From a virus (lineage: Duplodnaviria > Heunggongvirae > Uroviricota > Caudoviricetes), in the IMG/VR virus record IMGVR_UViG_2778261592_000001, positions 1-6,627 of that record: a stretch of DNA of 6,627 bases; one strand, written 5' to 3'. The position numbers and the translations under genes were made by a program. Positions 1 to 6,627 of this stretch are shown one piece after another (the stretch's first letter is position 1; each line of letters starts with the position of its first letter). The notes under the pieces are model-generated. The model saw nothing but the letters and a program-made list of their open reading frames with translations, was not told the origin of the DNA and did not search any database.

Positions 1-2054
1 TCGGTCAGAATGGCTGATTGTGCTTCCCGTGACTGTTTCAGCCACCACTTAATGGTGTCCCGATCGATGACTCCGCCTGCGGTTTCCAGATCGATAGTTT
101 TGCTGAATTCTGGCCCCATCTCTCCGGTTGCCGGATCAAAAAACTTACCGGCCAGAGCGTTTATTGGGGCATCAGGATTTTTGCCCATTGTTTCAAGGTT
201 AATCATCAGATGGTGCCACAACCTGCTGGTGGATGTGCTTTCACGATGACCGTTCACCTTAATTAAGGGATTTGCTGTCTCGCCACTTTCATTATCTGTG
301 GTGTGGTAGTGATCGCCGCCAGAGCCTTCCATTTCTTCCTGAGCTTCAGCCTGATTTTCTTCATCGAGTGTTTCCTGGTAGGTTGCGTTGCCCATCACCG
401 CGCCACAGTCAGGACAGTTGCCGCCACCGCTCTGACCGCAGGCGGTGCAGACTTTTTCCTCTTCCTGTTGCGCTACTGGTTCGGATTGTTTCGTTTCTGG
501 CTCGTCTTGTAACGCATTTTGGCTGTTTTGTTCTGCTTTCTGGTCGTTCTGTTCCGTTTCTTGCTGGTTCTGGTTCACAGAATCGCAGGTTTCAATCCCC
601 TTAACCCATTTCGGATCATTCGGGTCGCTAATCCCCTCAACAAATTCACCACGCGATACAGCAAGTAACTTATCGGCGTCAGGCTGGCTGATATTGGCTG
701 CCTGCATAATTTTGTTTACTTCGTCAGCGGTGACTTTTACTTGGTTAGCGGAACTCACCTGCGACTGAGCGTTCTGGCAATGTTCAGTTGTATCCGGTTC
801 CATTGTTTCAGTTGTTGCCTGTTCACCTGCCATTGCGTCAGATGGTTGTGGTTTTTCTTCTTCTGTTTCACGTTCAGTAACCACCTCGCGGTTAATTTCT
901 TCCAGGATATCTTTTTCCGGCGTATGCCGGGCAGCTGTGAGAGTTTCCTTGCTGGGGTTCTCGTGATCAGTTTCCGTCAAATAGGCGTTGATATACCCCT
1001 GAAGGCGTCCCGGGTAGTGATAAAATTCAGGGTGTGCGCTTCGGATAAGTGCAAAAATAGCGGCGCGGGAATAGTCCAGAATACCCGGGGTTGCACGAAG
1101 TGCTGCGGACCATTCTTTGAACGGACTTTCTTTTTTCAGGACTACTTCTTTTGCGCGACGATAAACGCTGCCCGGAATTTCATAAATATTAAAATCCATC
1201 GGAAGTGTGGCAGCTGCAATCTCCACATCCAGTGTGTCGAGGGTGTGTACTAAATTCGGATTGCGATCGGTTTTGTTCCCACCGCCAGCATTAGCACCGG
1301 AAGCCGTGCGGGTGATGCGTGAAACACGATTTCCTTTCATCCACTCTTTTGTCAGCAGACCTCGATCAGTGTAGTCAGCGTCCAGGTATGCTTCGAAAAA
1401 AGCAGTTATTAGTCCCAGGTCTGAATTACCCGGATTAGGGAAAACTTTGTCAGTGTCACGAACCAGTTTGTGGAGGTCGCGAATCTCCAGCGAGTCGAGC
1501 AGACTGGTTTTATGCGAAATAGCCAGGGCAGTAACAGCCGGTAGTTCTTCAGCCCGTGCAATGTGTAATGCCTGGAGTTCGTCGCGTGAAACGTGCGTTA
1601 CTGGTTTTTCGCTGCCGTGTTGAGCAAGCCAACGAATGGGCAATTCCTGACCGGAGACAGGCAGAAGCATGCTCTCCTCAATCTCAGTCATGTCTTCGCC
1701 GTTGATGTTGGTATTGTCAGTGCTGGCTGGTTTGTCCTGAACAGAGGGGGAAGGGCCGATAAATGTCATTGTGATGCCATCTTTCCCGCCTTTTTCATAG
1801 CGGTTGCAGAATTCAGTATCAAACACGCCTTCTGGCGGAAGGTCGTCAACAACGGGCAAATTGACGCGGACGGGTTTTTTAAAGTCGTCTTCATCATAAT
1901 CGTTGTCATCCATTGCAGTAATGCAGCGGGAGATTGCAACAGATAATTTTTTTGCTGTAGTCCAGTAAAAACCACCTTTAATTCCCAGGCGTTTTCTTAC
2001 TTTGTCATTTTTTGCTTCGCAATATAGTGCAAATTCTTCTTTATCAGTGCTCAT
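1..2054 (-). CDS. recE: RecE-like exonuclease VIII family protein, N-terminal 684 codons; C-terminus lies beyond the left edge
   Basis: Uninterrupted minus-strand reading frame from ATG at 2054 ([15 protein letters not shown]...) to position 1, hand-translated with no stop; not in the ORF track because it is edge-truncated. A long block ([85 protein letters not shown]) matches my recollection of the Rac prophage RecE N-terminal region. Sits directly downstream of ydfD, where K-12 has the ydfE fragment. Weak GAGG Shine-Dalgarno 14-17 nt upstream. Confidence 0.7.
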
Positions 2055-2147
2055 TATTGATAAACCTCATCACAGATTTAAGGGTGAACAAATCTCTGCC
2101 ATTGCTGACATATAAGAATGAAACTGGATATTTATTACGGTGCTGTT

Positions 2148-2336
2148 TTAAAATCCTGCCGGGATTTCGTTATCCTGGTGAATAACTTTATCGACCGGAT
2201 AACAGTTGCCTGGAATTTTCTGTTCGGTTGCTGCGGCCATACATTCCTGCATTGTTCTGTGAACACTGACTGCAATATCAACTGGCTCTCCGGAAACAAG
2301 AAAAACCGTCAGAATAAGTGCAAATGCTGAATTCAT
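2148..2336 (-). CDS. ydfD: YdfD-like small lysis protein with N-terminal hydrophobic segment (62 aa)
   Basis: MNSAFALILTVFLVSGEPVDIAVSVH... Start at 2336 has AAGGA 8 nt upstream and overlaps the dicB stop as ATGA. The longer track start at 2390 would overlap dicB by 58 nt. Position and size match ydfD of Qin (63 aa in K-12). Confidence 0.75.
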   Translation of the reverse strand: MNSAFALILTVFLVSGEPVDIAVSVHRTMQECMAAATEQKIPGNCYPVDKVIHQDNEIPAGF

Positions 2337-2521
2337 TGCGCACATCCTTTTGGCATCAGACGTAAACGAGCCAGCATTGAAACAATGCATATTTTATTTA
2401 ATAGCTCCCGTTCTTGTTTTCTCTTGTTAATGGCATCTTCAGTAAATACAGGGTTACTGATAGTGACACCAATTTCAAAACAACCTTCAGACGTATTAAC
2501 GTTTGGTAATAACGTTTTCAT
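2333..2521 (-). CDS. dicB: DicB cell-division inhibitor (MinC-activating), 62 aa
   Basis: MKTLLPNVNTSEGCFEIGVTISNPVFTEDAINKRKQERELLNKICIVSMLARLRLMPKGCAQ matches recalled DicB in sequence and length. GAGGA 7 nt upstream of ATG at 2521. Lies 175 nt downstream of DicF, as in K-12. Confidence 0.9.
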   Translation of the reverse strand: MKTLLPNVNTSEGCFEIGVTISNPVFTEDAINKRKQERELLNKICIVSMLARLRLMPKGCAQ

Positions 2522-2690
2522 TATCGCGTCCTCAACAATGAATTTTGTGATGCAGTGCCTGGTGCCTCCAGGTGACGTTAACCAGTTAACAATTAACGCC
2601 GGATACAGAGAATCCACCCATAACACTGTTTTTGGTTTTAACTGTTCCGCGTGCGCTCAGCCGCATTCACCACATCACAAAATTCACTTT

Positions 2691-2733
2691 AAAAAGGGCG
2701 GCAGAGCAGTCACGGAGTAAAACTGATACCGCC
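2691..2733 (-). terminator. Rho-independent terminator forming the DicF 3' end
   Basis: Minus-strand GGCGG (plus 2729-2733) pairs with CCGCC (within plus 2696-2701), followed by a five-U tract (plus 2691-2695). Confidence 0.6.
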
Positions 2734-2748
2734 AAACGTCACCAGAAA
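2696..2748 (-). ncRNA. dicF: DicF small regulatory RNA (53 nt)
   Basis: Minus-strand sequence UUUCUGGUGACGUUUGGCGGUAUCAGUUUUACUCCGUGACUGCUCUGCCGCCC followed by UUUUU (plus 2691-2695) matches recalled DicF exactly. 3' GC-rich stem (GGCGG/CCGCC) plus U-tract forms the intrinsic terminator. Confidence 0.85.
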
Positions 2749-3088
2749 ATTGATAACAGAAGGCGTTGCAGCGGGGTTGTCACTTAAGCGTATGGTCAAC
2801 CTGACAACCCGGTGTCCTCAACGGGGAAGAAATAACCCCTCCATACTTACCGCCGCACCATTTCGCGGGTTGCCACAACCGGAAGCGCACGGTCGACGAA
2901 AAGTTAACGACAGGCTATCTATGAACCAGCTACCTCGCCGTGCGCTTTCGCGTTATGGTCTGACTTTTCAGGGAAATATCCTTTCAGTAAACTGTCAGTG
3001 CCGGATGCTCACCCGCGTCCGGCGCACGCACTCCACCTCACCCGTGGAGAACTACTTAATTACCAACCTTAGCTTCGTTGGTTAGCTA

Positions 3089-3307
3089 TTAACGCGGGTA
3101 TGTAATCATTCTGGCAATGCTTAATGCCGCTGCTTTTTCCAGATTGGTGATATCCTGCTCCAGAGCGGACAGATTTTCAGCCTGCTTAGCCCTGGCTTCA
3201 TTGGCCCATTTCAGATCCTGCGCTGCATTAATTTTCTGGCGCATCCACTCATAAAGTTCATCATCGGTATAGTCTGGTGCGATGATGACGGGTTCTCGTT
3301 TCTGCAT
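3089..3307 (-). CDS. ydfC: YdfC-like hypothetical protein, predicted helical (72 aa)
   Basis: MQKREPVIIAPDYTDDELYEWMRQKINAAQDLKWANEARAKQAENLSALEQD... GAGGAA 5 nt upstream of the ATG. Position and length match ydfC in the Qin dicB operon. Confidence 0.8.
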   Translation of the reverse strand: MQKREPVIIAPDYTDDELYEWMRQKINAAQDLKWANEARAKQAENLSALEQDITNLEKAAALSIARMITYPR

Positions 3308-3336
3308 ACTGATTCCTCGCGGTGCTGTTTCGCTTA

Positions 3337-3465
3337 TCAGCCGTTAGATTTTGCCGAGCTGGAAAGCGCCTGTTTAAATTCGTTGAAGCTGAGAGCTTCT
3401 TCGCCGTCGGCAAGACCTTCGAAGTATTCTTCATAAGCCTTTTCCATGATTGTGTCGAAATCCAT
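3337..3465 (-). CDS. ydfB: YdfB-like small acidic protein (42 aa)
   Basis: Hand-translated MDFDTIMEKAYEEYFEGLADGEEALSFNEFKQALSSSAKSNG, ending in tandem stops TGATAA. ATG lies 1 nt after the ydfA stop (TGAtATG), with AGGTGAG upstream. Below the ORF-track size cut-off. Confidence 0.75.
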   Translation of the reverse strand: MDFDTIMEKAYEEYFEGLADGEEALSFNEFKQALSSSAKSNG

Positions 3466-3466
3466 A

Positions 3467-3622
3467 TCACTCACCTGAGTTTCTTTCCAGCCAGCGACGG
3501 GCACCATTTTCGGTTTTAAACGTTTTGCTTTTGGTATACGTCATCGCGGTGAACGTGCCGTCCTGGTTGGGGAACACGCCACATACCAGAGATTCGCTGT
3601 TGCCAAGATCGATAGTATCCAT
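3467..3622 (-). CDS. ydfA: YdfA-like small protein (51 aa)
   Basis: MDTIDLGNSESLVCGVFPNQDGTFTAMTYTKSKTFKTENGARRWLERNSGE. GAGGT 4-5 nt upstream of the ATG at 3622. The longer track ORF (start 3700) would begin inside the predicted promoter, so the internal start is preferred. Confidence 0.75.
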   Translation of the reverse strand: MDTIDLGNSESLVCGVFPNQDGTFTAMTYTKSKTFKTENGARRWLERNSGE

Positions 3623-3699
3623 GCTGACCTCATTTCCCCTTAACGCCGGGGTAGCGGAACTGTTTGCTGAGAACACCGTGCGGTGTCTTGATGCAAGCA

Positions 3700-3719
3700 A
3701 GATTAGCCATGACTAACAA
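3700..3719. promoter_or_regulatory. Operator-like imperfect palindrome, 16/20 match to the 20-bp site at 4246-4265
   Basis: agATTAGCCATGaCTAACAA; overlaps the -10 of the candidate operon promoter. Confidence 0.5.
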
Positions 3720-3728
3720 TTTGGTCAA
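3700..3728 (-). promoter_or_regulatory. Candidate sigma-70 promoter of the ydfABC-dicF-dicB-ydfD operon, overlapped by two operator palindromes
   Basis: Minus strand reads TTGACC (plus 3723-3728), 17-nt spacer, TAATCT (plus 3700-3705), about 80 nt upstream of the ydfA ATG. Confidence 0.5.
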
Positions 3729-3734
3729 GTATTT

Positions 3735-3754
3735 TTGTTTGCCATGGCTAACAT
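3735..3754. promoter_or_regulatory. Operator-like imperfect palindrome, 18/20 match to the 20-bp site at 4246-4265
   Basis: TTGTTtGCCATGGCTAACAt; centre lies 35 bp from the centre of the 3700-3719 site, just upstream of the -35. Confidence 0.55.
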
Positions 3755-3758
3755 TTTG

Positions 3759-3793
3759 GGCAGCCAAAAAGATAACGCATTGATTGCGTTATC
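3759..3793 (-). terminator. Candidate intrinsic terminator at the end of dicA
   Basis: Inverted repeat GATAACGCA (3771-3779) / TGCGTTATC (3785-3793) with 5-nt loop; the dicA stop codon lies in the stem. On the minus strand it is followed by TTTTT (plus 3766-3770). Confidence 0.45.
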
Positions 3794-4196
3794 TTTTGTT
3801 TGTTCGTTGACGGGCTTTTAATAACTCTTCAAAGAGTTTGTTGAAATTTTTTACTCGGGCGCGCATCTCGGTGAGCTGAGCATCCTGTTCTGATTCAGGC
3901 AATGCATTAAAAAGCTCAAGGAGCTCATGTTCTTTGGGGGATAGAGCAACTGGCTCCTCAATAGGTGGTGATGGCTGCTTGTCTTCATCGCCAAATAGAA
4001 TCCATGTTGGCGAGCACTGCAGTACTTTGCTGAGGGCAAAAAGATTCTTTCCTGTAGGTTCGCTATCATCCCGCTCCCATTGTGAAACCGATACGTGAGA
4101 AATTTTCAGGACTTTAGCAAGAGACCTTTGGGTGTATTTGAGGTTTTTTCGGCGATATCTAATGCGTTCGCCAATGGTTAAATTTTTTGTATCCAT
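3789..4196 (-). CDS. dicA: DicA, CI-like HTH (XRE family) prophage repressor, 135 aa
   Basis: MDTKNLTIGERIRYRRKNLKYTQRSLAKVLKISHVSVSQWERDDSEPTGKNLFALSKVLQCSPTWILFG... near-identical to recalled K-12 DicA. Divergent from the Cro-like gene. No obvious Shine-Dalgarno. Confidence 0.9.
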   Translation of the reverse strand: MDTKNLTIGERIRYRRKNLKYTQRSLAKVLKISHVSVSQWERDDSEPTGKNLFALSKVLQCSPTWILFGDEDKQPSPPIEEPVALSPKEHELLELFNALPESEQDAQLTEMRARVKNFNKLFEELLKARQRTNKR

Positions 4197-4218
4197 AGTT
4201 AGCTAATGCTAAATCTTA

Positions 4219-4247
4219 TTGACTATGTTTTTGTTAACATCTATTTT
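4219..4247 (+). promoter_or_regulatory. Candidate sigma-70 promoter for dicC
   Basis: TTGACT (4219-4224), 17-nt spacer, TATTTT (4242-4247); the 20-bp operator palindrome overlaps the -10 and the predicted transcription start. Confidence 0.5.
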
Positions 4248-4265
4248 GTTAGCCATGGCTAACAA
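4246..4265. promoter_or_regulatory. Perfect 20-bp palindromic operator, candidate DicA binding site
   Basis: TTGTTAGCCATGGCTAACAA is its own reverse complement. Located in the dicA-dicC intergenic region; two degenerate copies lie upstream of ydfA. Confidence 0.65.
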
Positions 4266-4279
4266 TTAAGGTGCTTTAA

Positions 4280-4510
4280 ATGCTTAAAACTGACGCACTT
4301 TTGTATTTCGGTTCAAAAACAAAACTTGCACAAGCTGCTGGTATTCGTTTGGCTTCGCTTTATAGCTGGAAAGGGGAGCTAGTACCTGAAGGTCGCGCGA
4401 TGCGCCTGCAAGAGGCATCCGGCGGGGAACTTCAGTACGACCCCAAAGTTTATGACGAATATCGTAAGGCAAAGCGGGCGGGGCGGTTGAACAATGAAAA
4501 TCACCCCTGA
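4280..4510 (+). CDS. dicC: DicC, Cro-like regulator, 76 aa
   Basis: MLKTDALLYFGSKTKLAQAAGIRLASLYSWKGELVPEGRAMRLQEASGGELQYDPKVYDEYRKAKRAGRLNNENHP matches recalled DicC. TAAGG 8 nt upstream of the ATG. Confidence 0.9.
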   Translation: MLKTDALLYFGSKTKLAQAAGIRLASLYSWKGELVPEGRAMRLQEASGGELQYDPKVYDEYRKAKRAGRLNNENHP

Positions 4511-5045
4511 ACAGGTTTGTGAGGCTCTGGATGCCTGGGTGTGCCGACCAGGAATGACACAGGAACAGGCGACGATATTAATCACGGAAGCATTCTGGGC
4601 TCTGAAAGAACGCCCGAACATCGATGTTCAACGCATCACGTTTAATGATGGCGAGGTTGATCAACGGGCACTGGGCGTTAACCGGGTGAAGATATTCGAA
4701 CGCTGGAAAGCTATCGACACCAGGGATAAGCGGAAAAAATTCACGGCGCTGATTCCGGCAATTATGGAGGCTATCCGAATTAGTGATTTCAGGTTGTATC
4801 GTGAGATCAGTGATGGAAAAAGCATTACGTACATGATCGCCGGATTAAACAAAGAATATGGCGATGTGGTGGAGTCCGGGCTGCTTTTTGCGGATCCATC
4901 TGTTGTGGAACGTGAGACTGACGAGCTTATAGAAAAAGCTATTGCTTTCAAGCATGCGTATCGTCAGCAGTATCAATATTACTTTGCAGATAAACAAATA
5001 TCTGCCAGGGGTTCGTATGAGTATCGATGCACTACGATGGGCTAA
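4494..5045 (+). CDS. YdaT-like (CII-analog family) protein, 183 aa; intact counterpart of the K-12 ydfX remnant
   Basis: Complete ORF starting 17 nt before the dicC stop. Begins MKI... and has the motif KFTALIPAIMEAI, resembling the KLIPAILAIL region I recall in Rac YdaT. Same position (after the cro-like gene) as ydaT in Rac-type prophages. Family assignment is from memory only. Confidence 0.55.
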   Translation: MKITPEQVCEALDAWVCRPGMTQEQATILITEAFWALKERPNIDVQRITFNDGEVDQRALGVNRVKIFERWKAIDTRDKRKKFTALIPAIMEAIRISDFRLYREISDGKSITYMIAGLNKEYGDVVESGLLFADPSVVERETDELIEKAIAFKHAYRQQYQYYFADKQISARGSYEYRCTTMG

Positions 5046-6057
5046 AAAGGTGAAAACCGGCAGTTCATCCAGTAAGTCTGTATTGACCTGGCTTGCTGAT
5101 ATGTGCGGTGCCGATTTGTGTGCATACCCGTCTGTATCTGCACTGGCAGAAGTAACGGAACTGAACAAAAAGACTGTGCAGGACAGCTTACGACACCTGA
5201 TGGAGATTGGGTTAATTGTTGATACCGGTGAGAGAAAAGGCAGAACAAAGCAAATTGTGGTGTACCGACTTATCGGTGTAGAAGAAAGTGTTGCCGAGCC
5301 TGAATACACCCAAAAACGGGTGTCTTTAAAGGTGGGTAAAATTGGTGCTGTTAATAAAAACAGTACCGAAAACGGTTATGTTTCAGCACAAAAGAGCCCC
5401 AAAAACGGAACTCTTTGTTGCATGGAAAATAACCAAAGACACCCAAATTTTCCATCAAAGACACCCAAAAACGGATCACGGAACCCAAAGGAACCCAAAG
5501 ATCTAAACCCCACACATAACGCACACGAGAGTGCTCCGATCAGTGAGCAGGAAGTTTTGTCGTTACAGGCAGCCCCCCATGTATTCCTGGATGGCCTGAG
5601 CGAACCCATCGGAAAATTTCCGATGACCGATAGCTGGTATCCGTCACGGGATTTTCGACGACGGGCTGCGTTGTGGGGGATGGCTTTGCCGGAGACAGAA
5701 TTTACACCTGCTGAACTTACCGCATTCCGGGACTACTGGGCAGCGGAGGGGAAAGTGTTTACGCAGATTCAGTGGGAGCAGAAATTCGCCCGTCACGTAA
5801 ATCACGTCAGGGCGCAGGTTAAACCAGTCAGCAAGGGGGTAAACCATGCAGCAGCACCAGGTGGCACCGCATCACGGGCAGTTCAGGAAATTCGGGCAGC
5901 ACGTGAGCAGTGGGAACGTGAAAACGGATTTATCAGCGACGGAAACGGCCTGGAAGCTGTGGGAACTCATGGGGGAGGTTTATTCGAACCGCTGGACCCA
6001 GAAGAACGGGGCCGCACCTTCGAAGCTCTGGATTGCACAGATTGGCGCGATGACTGA
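5017..6057 (+). CDS. Phage replication initiation protein: winged-helix N-terminal domain, low-complexity linker, DnaT-like C-terminal domain (346 aa from chosen start)
   Basis: Start ATG 5017 (MSIDALRWAKKV...) has AGGGG 5 nt upstream and overlaps the upstream gene by 29 nt; the track ORF start at 4942 would overlap by 104 nt. C-terminal segment (WYPSRDFRRRAALWGMALPETEFTPAELTAFRDYWAAEGKVFTQIQWEQKFARHV) resembles DnaT-like ssDNA-binding domains. Occupies the lambda O position upstream of a P-like gene. Confidence 0.7.
   Translation: MSIDALRWAKKVKTGSSSSKSVLTWLADMCGADLCAYPSVSALAEVTELNKKTVQDSLRHLMEIGLIVDTGERKGRTKQIVVYRLIGVEESVAEPEYTQKRVSLKVGKIGAVNKNSTENGYVSAQKSPKNGTLCCMENNQRHPNFPSKTPKNGSRNPKEPKDLNPTHNAHESAPISEQEVLSLQAAPHVFLDGLSEPIGKFPMTDSWYPSRDFRRRAALWGMALPETEFTPAELTAFRDYWAAEGKVFTQIQWEQKFARHVNHVRAQVKPVSKGVNHAAAPGGTASRAVQEIRAAREQWERENGFISDGNGLEAVGTHGGGLFEPLDPEERGRTFEALDCTDWRDD
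5397..5500. repeat. Iteron-like direct repeats (ACCCAAA core), candidate replication origin inside the initiator gene
   Basis: CAAAGACACCCAAA at 5434-5447 and 5456-5469 (22-bp spacing); CCCAAAAACGGA at 5398-5409 and 5464-5475 (66-bp spacing); tandem GGAACCCAAA at 5480-5489 and 5490-5499. A moderately AT-rich stretch lies just upstream (5350-5395). Confidence 0.5.
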
Positions 6058-6511
6058 GCAGCAAATCCGGCAGGTCTGCCGCCAGTGCATGGACCGCTGC
6101 CGGGCGGGTGAAACATGGCCTCCGGACCTGGCTGAGTTTGTGGCGCTGATTTCGGAAAGCGGGGCCAATCCATTTGGCCTGACGGTGGATGCTGTGATGG
6201 AGGAGTATCGCCGCTGGCGTAATGAGTCCTGGCGATATAACGGAAGCGACAAATATCCGTGGCCTCAGCCTGTGCTGTATCACATTTGCCTCGAGATGCG
6301 TTCAAAGGGGATTGAACGCCAGATGACCGAAGGGGAATTAAAACGGCTTGCAGAACGGCAGCTGACGAAATGGGCAAAGCATGTTAGTAACGGCCTGAGC
6401 GTTCCGCCAGTACGGCGACAACTGGCGGCACCAAAACGCCCGTTGGGACCAACGCCAATTGAGTTGCTGAAACAGGAGTATGAACGCCGGAAAGCGGCTG
6501 GTTTTGTCTGA
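6050..6511 (+). CDS. Lambda P-like replication protein (DnaB helicase loader family); start uncertain, in-frame alternatives at 5969 and 5846
   Basis: Resembles recalled lambda P: AMTEQQIRQVCRQ..ETWPPDLAEFVALI vs ITTMEQVNAGMRVARRQ..PFLPSPGQFVAWC, and YPWPQPVLYH..TEGELKRLAERQ vs YPWKSNAHYW..TDAELRRKAADE. ATG 6050 overlaps the upstream stop as ATGACTGA. The frame is open from 5846, which has AAGGGGG 6 nt upstream and would give 221 aa. Confidence 0.7.
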   Translation: MTEQQIRQVCRQCMDRCRAGETWPPDLAEFVALISESGANPFGLTVDAVMEEYRRWRNESWRYNGSDKYPWPQPVLYHICLEMRSKGIERQMTEGELKRLAERQLTKWAKHVSNGLSVPPVRRQLAAPKRPLGPTPIELLKQEYERRKAAGFV

Positions 6512-6545
6512 TTTGAGAAGTAATTTTTATCCGGAGGAAATTTTA

Positions 6546-6627
6546 ATGGGAACCGTATTGCATGCACTGAAAGCGATGGGTAAAGCCAATTCTGTTGAAC
6601 TGGCGGCGCGGCTTGATATCAGCCGTG
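6546..6627 (+). CDS. Hypothetical protein, 5' fragment only (27 codons in window), possibly Ren-like
   Basis: ATG 6546 preceded by GGAGGAAA with 7-nt spacer; frame open to the window end (MGTVLHALKAMGKANSVELAARLDISR...). Loose resemblance to lambda Ren N-terminus; too short to classify. Confidence 0.45.
   Translation, partial: MGTVLHALKAMGKANSVELAARLDISR

Follow-up and report, generated by a model that had tools for sequence, protein, structure and literature searches.

Which functions are served by the proteins that a very common class of prophage expresses first on waking? We asked this question for ydfA, ydfB, and ydfC, the genes that lead the DicF/DicB operon in a 6,627-nt stretch of viral DNA (Caudoviricetes; IMG/VR record IMGVR_UViG_2778261592_000001, positions 1 to 6,627; from here on, the window), which represents the immunity and early-left region of a Qin/Tritos-type lambdoid prophage and carries the operon on the minus strand. 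The three genes are already known and annotated. They belong to the "y-ome" of Escherichia coli K-12, about three-quarters of complete E. coli genomes contain at least part of the set, in many cases as several copies, and a functional assignment would fill a gap that has long persisted in a much-studied operon. They were called uncharacterized in mSystems in 2016, in J Bacteriol in 2023, and in the 2024 y-ome survey, and YdfC is described as without known function in a preprint dated 2026, in agreement with an initial annotation of the window from its sequence, which had regarded the functions as undefined.

We find that ydfA, ydfB, and ydfC are very probably real, separately mobile, immediate-early accessory genes. 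As the best explanation of the locus as a whole, we tentatively infer that their products are early binders, with YdfA serving in counter-defense or DNA entry; the counter-defense mechanism taken by itself is slightly more tentative. While the finding mostly restates existing annotation, two elements are worth keeping: the association of DUF1391, the domain of YdfA, with DarA_N and ArdC-N, which is the only new lead, and the exchangeable slot behind a conserved leader.

ydfA, ydfB, and ydfC are very probably genuine genes

The initial annotation had described three small proteins of 51, 42, and 72 amino acids (aa) without enzymatic signature; we found open reading frames (ORFs) at these same positions, and Pfam and NCBIfam scans of the three products returned no enzymatic family. 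Because ORFs of such sizes are frequent by chance, with 66 ORFs of at least 30 aa in the window, their status as genes needs evidence beyond the existence of an ORF. The products match phage protein families at E values of 1e-27 to 1e-40 (YdfA and phrog_751, E = 1.8e-36; YdfB and phrog_2061, E = 3.8e-27; YdfC and phrog_1744, E = 1.6e-39, positions 1-68 of 68). Each start is preceded by a correctly spaced Shine-Dalgarno sequence, which is GAGG located 5 nt upstream for ydfA, AGGTGA located 5 nt upstream for ydfB, and GAGGA located 6 nt upstream for ydfC, and frame and length are retained in Salmonella, Citrobacter, and Cronobacter, as seen for the 42-aa frame of ydfB. In pairwise comparisons, the ratio of nonsynonymous to synonymous substitution rates (dN/dS) was 0.11-0.26 for ydfA, with dS reaching ~1, and 0.16-0.31 for ydfB, indicating purifying selection on these two genes; for ydfC, the overall ratio was ~0.5-0.65, which is compatible with weak constraint.

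Gene finders also propose longer forms of YdfA (77-86 aa) and YdfB (56-68 aa). The upstream in-frame ATG of the 56-aa form of YdfB is missing from some loci, and because the N-terminal extensions of the long forms are not conserved, the short forms are the real ones. A reading in which the ORFs are untranslated and their annotation is an artifact could appeal to the chance frequency of small ORFs and to the literature, in which we found no published protein-level detection or translation of the three. The family-model matches, the purifying selection on ydfA and ydfB, the Shine-Dalgarno sequence at every start, and the conservation of the 51-, 42-, and 72-aa frames without the extensions speak against this reading, and we consider it extremely improbable.

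Damaged or fused copies are numerous in databases (L032/L033, P0343, P0123, and others). Examples are a premature stop in ydfA by which the distance to ydfB grows to 10 nt, a frameshift fusion of YdfA and YdfB, and truncated "partial" versions of YdfB and YdfC. Such copies would be expected if defective prophages decay.

YdfA is the solo form of a domain that also occurs in DarA_N and ArdC-N proteins

YdfA consists of DUF1391 only, matching Pfam PF07151 with 96.2 bits against a cut-off of 27.3 over model positions 1-48 of 48. The motifs GNNE, DGTF-A-T, and SK-FKT--GA--W, which are invariant or nearly so in two family alignments, are present in the YdfA of the window. An exhaustive profile search with the YdfA alignment recovered 342 cluster representatives with E ≤ 1e-3, 113 of them with E ≤ 1e-10. 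These sequences show much greater diversity than the matches of a first search, which were near-identical proteins from Escherichia, Shigella, and Salmonella. The matches are mostly small solo proteins, they are conserved over distant Proteobacteria, and they share a core of LGNNE, followed by GVF, DGTF-A-T, SK-FKT, and GA-RWL. A C-terminal tail with the pattern RG(Y/L)-x2-DG(T/S)(R/K) is common to the non-enteric members and is missing from the E. coli proteins.

Ten matches of at least 440 aa, among the 150 matches listed, were scanned for domains using Pfam cut-offs. Five of these 10 proteins combine an internal DUF1391 with DarA_N ("defence against restriction A"), and in 2, it is found with ArdC-N and DUF3560. 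The DUF1391-DarA_N proteins also match phrog_1926, which is annotated as "released from the phage upon host infection," and the neighbors of one DUF1391-ArdC-N fusion are integrase, SRAP, and methyltransferase genes. As a solo gene, DUF1391 is the first early-left gene behind differing repressors, i.e., DicA-like repressors, the CI of Tritos, and the LexA-like cI of Serratia phage OS31; in Pantoea and Salicola phages, it is also surrounded by groups of small genes labeled hypothetical. When plasmids were searched by tblastn, nearly all records with DUF1391 were typed as non-mobilizable, several of them chromosome-sized, and recognizable conjugative plasmids were not among them.

Because DUF1391 can be a first-made product or a part of DarA/ArdC-type proteins, we favor a role in counter-defense or DNA entry. 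YdfA would be the free form of a module that elsewhere is built into DarA_N-type proteins and into ArdC-N/DUF3560 proteins of integrative elements, and it would probably act on host defense or on the DNA itself. The suggestion in the initial annotation that the locus harbors anti-defense factors thus gains indirect support for one of the three proteins, YdfA, from its fused relatives and from its place as the first early-left gene behind several repressors. If the link to DarA/ArdC is functional, YdfA is a small and easily testable candidate for a phage counter-defense protein.

Several further observations concern this family. P0435, a metagenomic protein of 722 aa, has two tandem DUF1391 copies at residues ~184-230 and ~275-315. 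We discarded a 3348-aa match, P0358, as a repeat-protein artifact, and the "ydfA" of a paper on an IncI plasmid is a homonym. In several deposited phage genomes (L002, 4125-4334; several ON4706xx records), YdfA is labeled "head-DNA stabilization protein D"; the sole basis that we found for this label is a chance-level similarity between YdfA and a head decoration protein (E = 0.32), and it looks like a propagated mis-annotation. In Serratia phage OS31 (L026, 3852-3989), a 45-aa peptide is encoded by the small ORF in third place behind DUF1391; it contains an arginine-rich stretch, RCRRRARREIRTQRRR, which resembles the RNA-binding motif of N-type antiterminators.

YdfB is a putative acidic helix-loop-helix and YdfC is probably a coiled coil

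YdfB has an isoelectric point of 4.05 and a net charge of -7.5, bearing out its initial description as strongly acidic. A Pfam scan gave no family, and by alignment, YdfB belongs to a group of 42-aa acidic proteins with an invariant AYE-YF...GE--SF-EFK core; we regard it as a putative acidic helix-loop-helix. Matches to EF hands were limited to subthreshold similarities to calcineurin B/CHP loops (E ~0.4-0.9), and loop positions 1 and 6 of YdfB are not Asp and Gly, unlike the canonical DxDxDG. Two candidate homologs were rejected, namely, Rac YdaG, the sequence of which is unrelated by eye, and a small acidic gene that follows DUF1391 in Pantoea phage LIET2, for which hhalign gave a probability of 0.1%.

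YdfC was predicted by AlphaFold2 (AF2) to form a single helix from residues 15 to 69 with a predicted local distance difference test (pLDDT) score of 88, in line with the helical appearance noted before. Foldseek returned no match to this lone helix, profile searches matched GCN4-type coiled coils only, and based on the model, YdfC is probably one long coiled-coil helix. Along this helix, the heptad a and d positions are conserved (entropy 0.56 and 1.02), while the surface is variable (1.4-1.9). Residues 1-22 form a conserved acidic-aromatic N-terminal peptide; dN/dS is ~0.06 for codons 1-22 and 0.6-1.2 for codons 23-68, and the first 22 codons are near-identical even in DNA between alleles whose other codons differ by ~50% at the protein level. 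In loci with divergent ydfC alleles, the downstream neighbors differ as well. Either a coiled coil whose surface changes or a mosaic joint within the gene would fit this pattern.

Published data and the weighing of the proposed roles

Experiments in K-12 constrain what the three proteins may do. Upon induction of the operon with dicF and dicB deleted, growth, viability, and morphology were those of the wild type, and because they stayed normal, YdfA, YdfB, and YdfC are non-toxic at that expression level. Moreover, deletion of dicB alone brings plating of lambda-vir to near normal with ydfABC still induced; because this single deletion restores plating, the three genes do not exclude lambda-vir.

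These data bear on the proposal, also made initially, that the products serve the lysogen in superinfection exclusion or defense, as DicB does. The proposal fits with DicB of the same operon blocking lambda and other phages, with spontaneous firing of the dicBp promoter in a subpopulation of cells, and with the block being kept, often within defective prophages, by ~43% of complete E. coli genomes. It is at odds with DicA repression of the promoter in the lysogen and with the plating data; moreover, no PADLOC defense model matched the products at E ≤ 1, and YdfA, YdfB, and YdfC have no membrane segments, with a grand average of hydropathy of -0.6 to -0.75. We therefore consider exclusion unlikely, and more so than the two other functional alternatives discussed below.

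The absence of a phenotype could also mean that the products are of little importance, either as hitch-hiking or decaying moron-like genes or because their translation mainly shields the long transcript from Rho or RNases for the benefit of DicF and DicB. Besides the normal behavior upon induction, the dN/dS of ~0.5-1 in the ydfC helix, the common occurrence of frameshifted and truncated database copies, and the dependence of upstream mRNA stability on processing by the RNases E and III (J Bacteriol 2023) are in keeping with this idea. Products without importance would, however, not be expected to show dN/dS values of 0.11-0.31 for ydfA and ydfB at dS up to ~1, conservation of DUF1391 in distant Proteobacteria and its retention in large proteins, a YdfB held at 42 aa in four genera, or a conserved heptad core in YdfC, and we consider this explanation improbable.

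We propose instead the following scheme. ydfA, ydfB, and ydfC fill the first slots of the early-left operon, the equivalent of that from lambda pL, in a Qin/Tritos-type lambdoid prophage and would be silent as long as DicA represses dicBp. Upon infection, induction, or spontaneous derepression, their products would be made first, ahead of DicF and DicB, which cause the known division block. The products would be small binders, not enzymes, that the phage uses in the opening minutes of lytic development: YdfA as described above, YdfB probably by binding a host or phage protein via its acidic helix-loop-helix, and YdfC probably as a coiled coil that displays its conserved N-terminal peptide and binds a partner.

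Several points weigh against this scheme. The link of DUF1391 to anti-restriction is guilt by association, based on seven fusions among the 150 matches listed, and polyvalent proteins also hold domains unrelated to restriction, according to the paper describing them. We found no sequence or fold similarity of the three proteins to characterized anti-defense proteins (ArdA/Ocr mimics, ArdC, DarA, Ral, and Gam); the structure prediction and remote-homology searches that the initial annotation had recommended gave a confident helix for YdfC and no such relative. Searches of PDB sequences with single sequences and profiles gave nothing meaningful (GCN4 coiled coils for YdfC, EF-hand loops for YdfB, and a weak match to a head-decoration protein for YdfA). 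The AF2 model of YdfA, a beta hairpin plus a helix, is of low confidence (pLDDT 62). The lambda-vir plating, the weak overall constraint on ydfC, and the lack of published protein-level detection point in the same direction.

The three genes occupy an exchangeable slot behind a conserved leader box

Of 5426 complete E. coli genomes, 3969 contain part of the 534-bp ydfABC block and 2311 (~43%) contain the whole block, at up to 8 places per genome; the operon is also present in viral genome records, e.g., those of Tritos, PhiR42_1, and mEp460. In collections of phages and of genomes, the breakpoints of the block coincide with gene boundaries. ydfA stands alone in mEp460 and related loci, the pair of ydfA and ydfB occurs without ydfC, ydfC occurs alone and, in 13 of 63 viral contigs, lies behind a different first gene of ~100 aa, and a Rac-like Citrobacter prophage has a solo 42-aa ydfB ortholog as the first gene after the repressor. 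ydfA, ydfB, and ydfC are separable modules, not an obligate trio, and because the block breaks at gene boundaries, the slot behind the early-left promoter is an exchangeable accessory region, marked by a leader box. The block itself is 100% identical to that of E. coli STEC434; because the surrounding 2.2 kb (2100-4300) has no match of >97.3% identity in the 5426 genomes, the window represents a mosaic prophage.

The leader box, GTTCCGCTACCCCGGCGTTAAGGGG (also written GTTCCGCYACCCSGGCGTTAAGGGG), was found behind at least 81 distinct upstream 60-mers (immunity sequences) in 162 loci, and DUF1391 follows it at a fixed 13-nt spacer in ~139 of these (~86%). Variants of the box lie upstream of ydaG in Rac and of ydfB in Citrobacter. 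When the leader and the two intercistronic junctions were folded, no exceptional RNA structure was found (z -0.3 to +0.3); the leader fold is unexceptional relative to shuffled sequence (z = -0.3) and has no Rfam match. In a check for boxA/boxB nut sites, a stem of 4 bp closing an 8-nt loop (CCCC-GGCGTTAA-GGGG) was seen in the box. Possible roles of the box are those of a recombination linker, of a translation-initiation region, and of a nut/put-like site.

The ydfA stop and the ydfB start are 1 nt apart, read directly as TGA-t-ATG and as initially described. This junction is identical in most related loci checked, and the spacing is the same in 59 of 62 viral contigs. With a close stop and start and the downstream Shine-Dalgarno sequence inside the upstream ORF, the pair has the geometry of translationally coupled genes. 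The minimum-free-energy fold pairs the ydfB Shine-Dalgarno sequence with ydfA codons and is no better than that of shuffled sequence (z = 0.05), and ydfB, which is the first gene in Citrobacter, functions without ydfA ahead of it. Translational coupling of ydfA and ydfB, claimed at the outset, is a reasonable expectation from geometry only; each gene would use its own Shine-Dalgarno sequence, and ydfB would in addition be placed for termination-reinitiation coupling.

Extending the preferred scheme, YdfA and Rac YdaF could be free-standing modules of DarA-/ArdC-type proteins and constitute a new, very widespread family of immediate-early counter-defense proteins that, e.g., alleviate restriction or protect DNA on its entry. 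In that case, the slot behind the leader box would serve N-less lambdoid phages as an exchangeable anti-defense hotspot, and YdfB and YdfC would be further inhibitors. In this full form, we consider the idea rather unlikely.

Operon layout and a possible regulatory role

The gene order in the window (dicA, promoter and operators, ydfA, ydfB, ydfC, DicF, dicB, and ydfD; Table 1) is that of the annotated E. coli operon (RefSeq, closest complete genome), which upholds the gene identities and the lead position given initially, and with all elements on one strand, the locus is a Qin-type dicBF operon. A terminator-like hairpin follows dicA and is followed by a dicBp-type promoter, the position of which agrees with that of the DicA-repressed dicBp of K-12; a simple consensus promoter scan did not flag this promoter. 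Both operator-like palindromes overlap the promoter and are related to the palindrome TTAGCCATGGCTAA at 4249-4262 between dicA and dicC; DicA operators at both intergenic regions are described in the literature. No terminator-like site was found on the minus strand within 3089-3622. An untranslated spacer of 341 nt (2748-3088) separates ydfC from DicF, and downstream lies an intact-looking large exonuclease ORF that extends past the left end of the window. In K-12, Northern blots and reverse transcription-PCR show a single polycistronic transcript from dicBp, and a ydfA probe reveals ydfABC-dicF and ydfABC-dicFB-ydfD transcripts from this DicA-repressed promoter (J Bacteriol 2023). By analogy with K-12, the genes in the window would likewise be co-transcribed.

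Table 1. Features of the early-left operon and its control region in the window
Feature	Position	Strand	Description
ydfA	3467-3622	-	ATG...TGA, 51 aa
ydfB	3337-3465	-	ATG...TGA, 42 aa
ydfC	3089-3307	-	ATG...TAA, 72 aa
ydfA/ydfB junction	3463-3476	-	...GGT GAG TGA t ATG GAT; AGGTGA inside ydfA, TGA, 1 nt, ydfB ATG
Conserved 5' leader box	3636-3660	-	GTTCCGCTACCCCGGCGTTAAGGGG; 25 nt, 13 nt upstream of ydfA ATG
dicBp-type sigma-70 promoter	3700-3728	-	-35 TTGACC 3723-3728, 17-nt spacer, -10 TAATCT 3700-3705; by reading the sequence
Two operator-like palindromes	3703-3753	-	TTGTTAGTCATGGCTAA 3703-3719 and TGTTAGCCATGGCAAACA 3736-3753; pattern search
dicA	3789-4196	-	135-aa helix-turn-helix repressor controlling the operon; Pfam HTH_3 and Phage_CI_repr; annotated dicA in E. 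coli
DicF small RNA	2696-2747	-	Rfam RF00039, 76.7 bits, E = 3.7e-16
dicB	2333-2521	-	62 aa; Pfam PF05358, E = 1.9e-40
ydfD	2148-2336	-	62 aa, DUF1482; Pfam PF07358, E = 1.2e-24

This layout raises the alternative that one or more of the products regulate the early program of the phage itself, either as an N-like antiterminator that lets RNA polymerase pass the DicF terminator and reach dicB, the exonuclease gene, xis, and int or as a cIII-like protector of the CII-like YdaT, which is encoded across the immunity region. ydfA occupies the place of lambda N as the first same-strand gene after the repressor, no N homolog is annotated in Tritos, PhiR42_1, or mEp460, a Rho-independent terminator lies at DicF between ydfC and dicB, and the leader box precedes the first gene. 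For the cIII-like version, there is a YdaT-family gene at 4494-5045, and YdfC is a long amphipathic helix, as is lambda CIII. However, none of the three has an N-type arginine-rich motif: YdfA carries no Arg ahead of residue 42, YdfB is free of Arg, and residues 1-22 of YdfC contain a single one. No Pfam match to N, CIII, or Gam families was found at E ≤ 0.1, nor was there a resemblance to Ral. DUF1391 also occurs outside the lambdoid immunity context and in large fusions, where antitermination makes no sense, ydfB and ydfC are missing from many phages that retain DicF and dicB, and the leader folds no better than shuffled sequence. We consider self-regulation about as improbable as a lack of importance and continue to favor early binders with YdfA in counter-defense or DNA entry.

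Other features of the window were also noted. The dicB stop and the ydfD start overlap (ATGA, 2333-2336, minus strand), making these genes the second likely translationally coupled pair of the operon. The YdaT-family (CII-like) gene (plus strand) begins within the end of dicC with a 17-nt overlap and is followed by DnaT-like and lambda-P-like replication genes, as in annotated relatives. The DicF-dicB spacer (2544-2684, minus strand) has a subthreshold Rfam match to the Salmonella small RNA STnc100 (34 bits versus a gathering score of 47; E = 3e-5), and a permissive-E Rfam scan of the window gave DicF and this match only. On the opposite strand, the ydfC-DicF spacer contains a 111-aa ORF (2750-3085, plus strand); in phage PhiR42_1 (L002, 4716-5416), two opposite-strand "hypothetical proteins" are annotated over the spacer and DicF, with DicF unannotated. 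These opposite-strand calls are probably spurious.

Comparison with known systems

The closest known system is the dicBF operon of the K-12 Qin prophage, which has the same gene order, gene sizes, promoter/operator layout, and downstream DicF, dicB, and ydfD; K-12-derived genomes are ~97% identical to the window at the DNA level. Unlike K-12 Qin, the window has the intact-looking exonuclease ORF downstream, in the place of which K-12 has a disrupted ydfE/insD region.

YdaF of the Rac prophage, a DUF1391 paralog, is like YdfA in being 51 aa long, in being ~80% identical, and in its location in an early-left operon that lies beside the repressor and is likewise preceded by the leader box. It differs in being the second gene, after the unrelated ydaG, and in what follows, i.e., sieB, kilR, and recET in Rac compared to ydfB, ydfC, DicF, and dicB after ydfA in the window.

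The polyvalent proteins of the P1 DarA and plasmid ArdC types are linked to YdfA by the polypeptides that combine DUF1391 with DarA_N (5 proteins) or with ArdC-N and DUF3560 (2 proteins). Such combinations have the polyvalent layout that is described for effectors of early-phase conflict. According to the paper on polyvalent proteins, the main text of which does not mention DUF1391, YdfA, or YdaF, those encoded by phages and by conjugative elements are active early during invasion. YdfA, in contrast, has only 51 aa without a DarA_N or ArdC domain, and it is made from the incoming or induced genome rather than as a domain of a large protein.

Finally, the early proteins from lambdoid pL (lambda N, Ral, CIII, Kil, and Gam) have no detectable sequence similarity to YdfA, YdfB, and YdfC, which also lack an arginine-rich motif, but they share their operon position and size class. 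Within the operon of the window, the functional analog of Kil is DicB, and both proteins are listed as division inhibitors in the literature.

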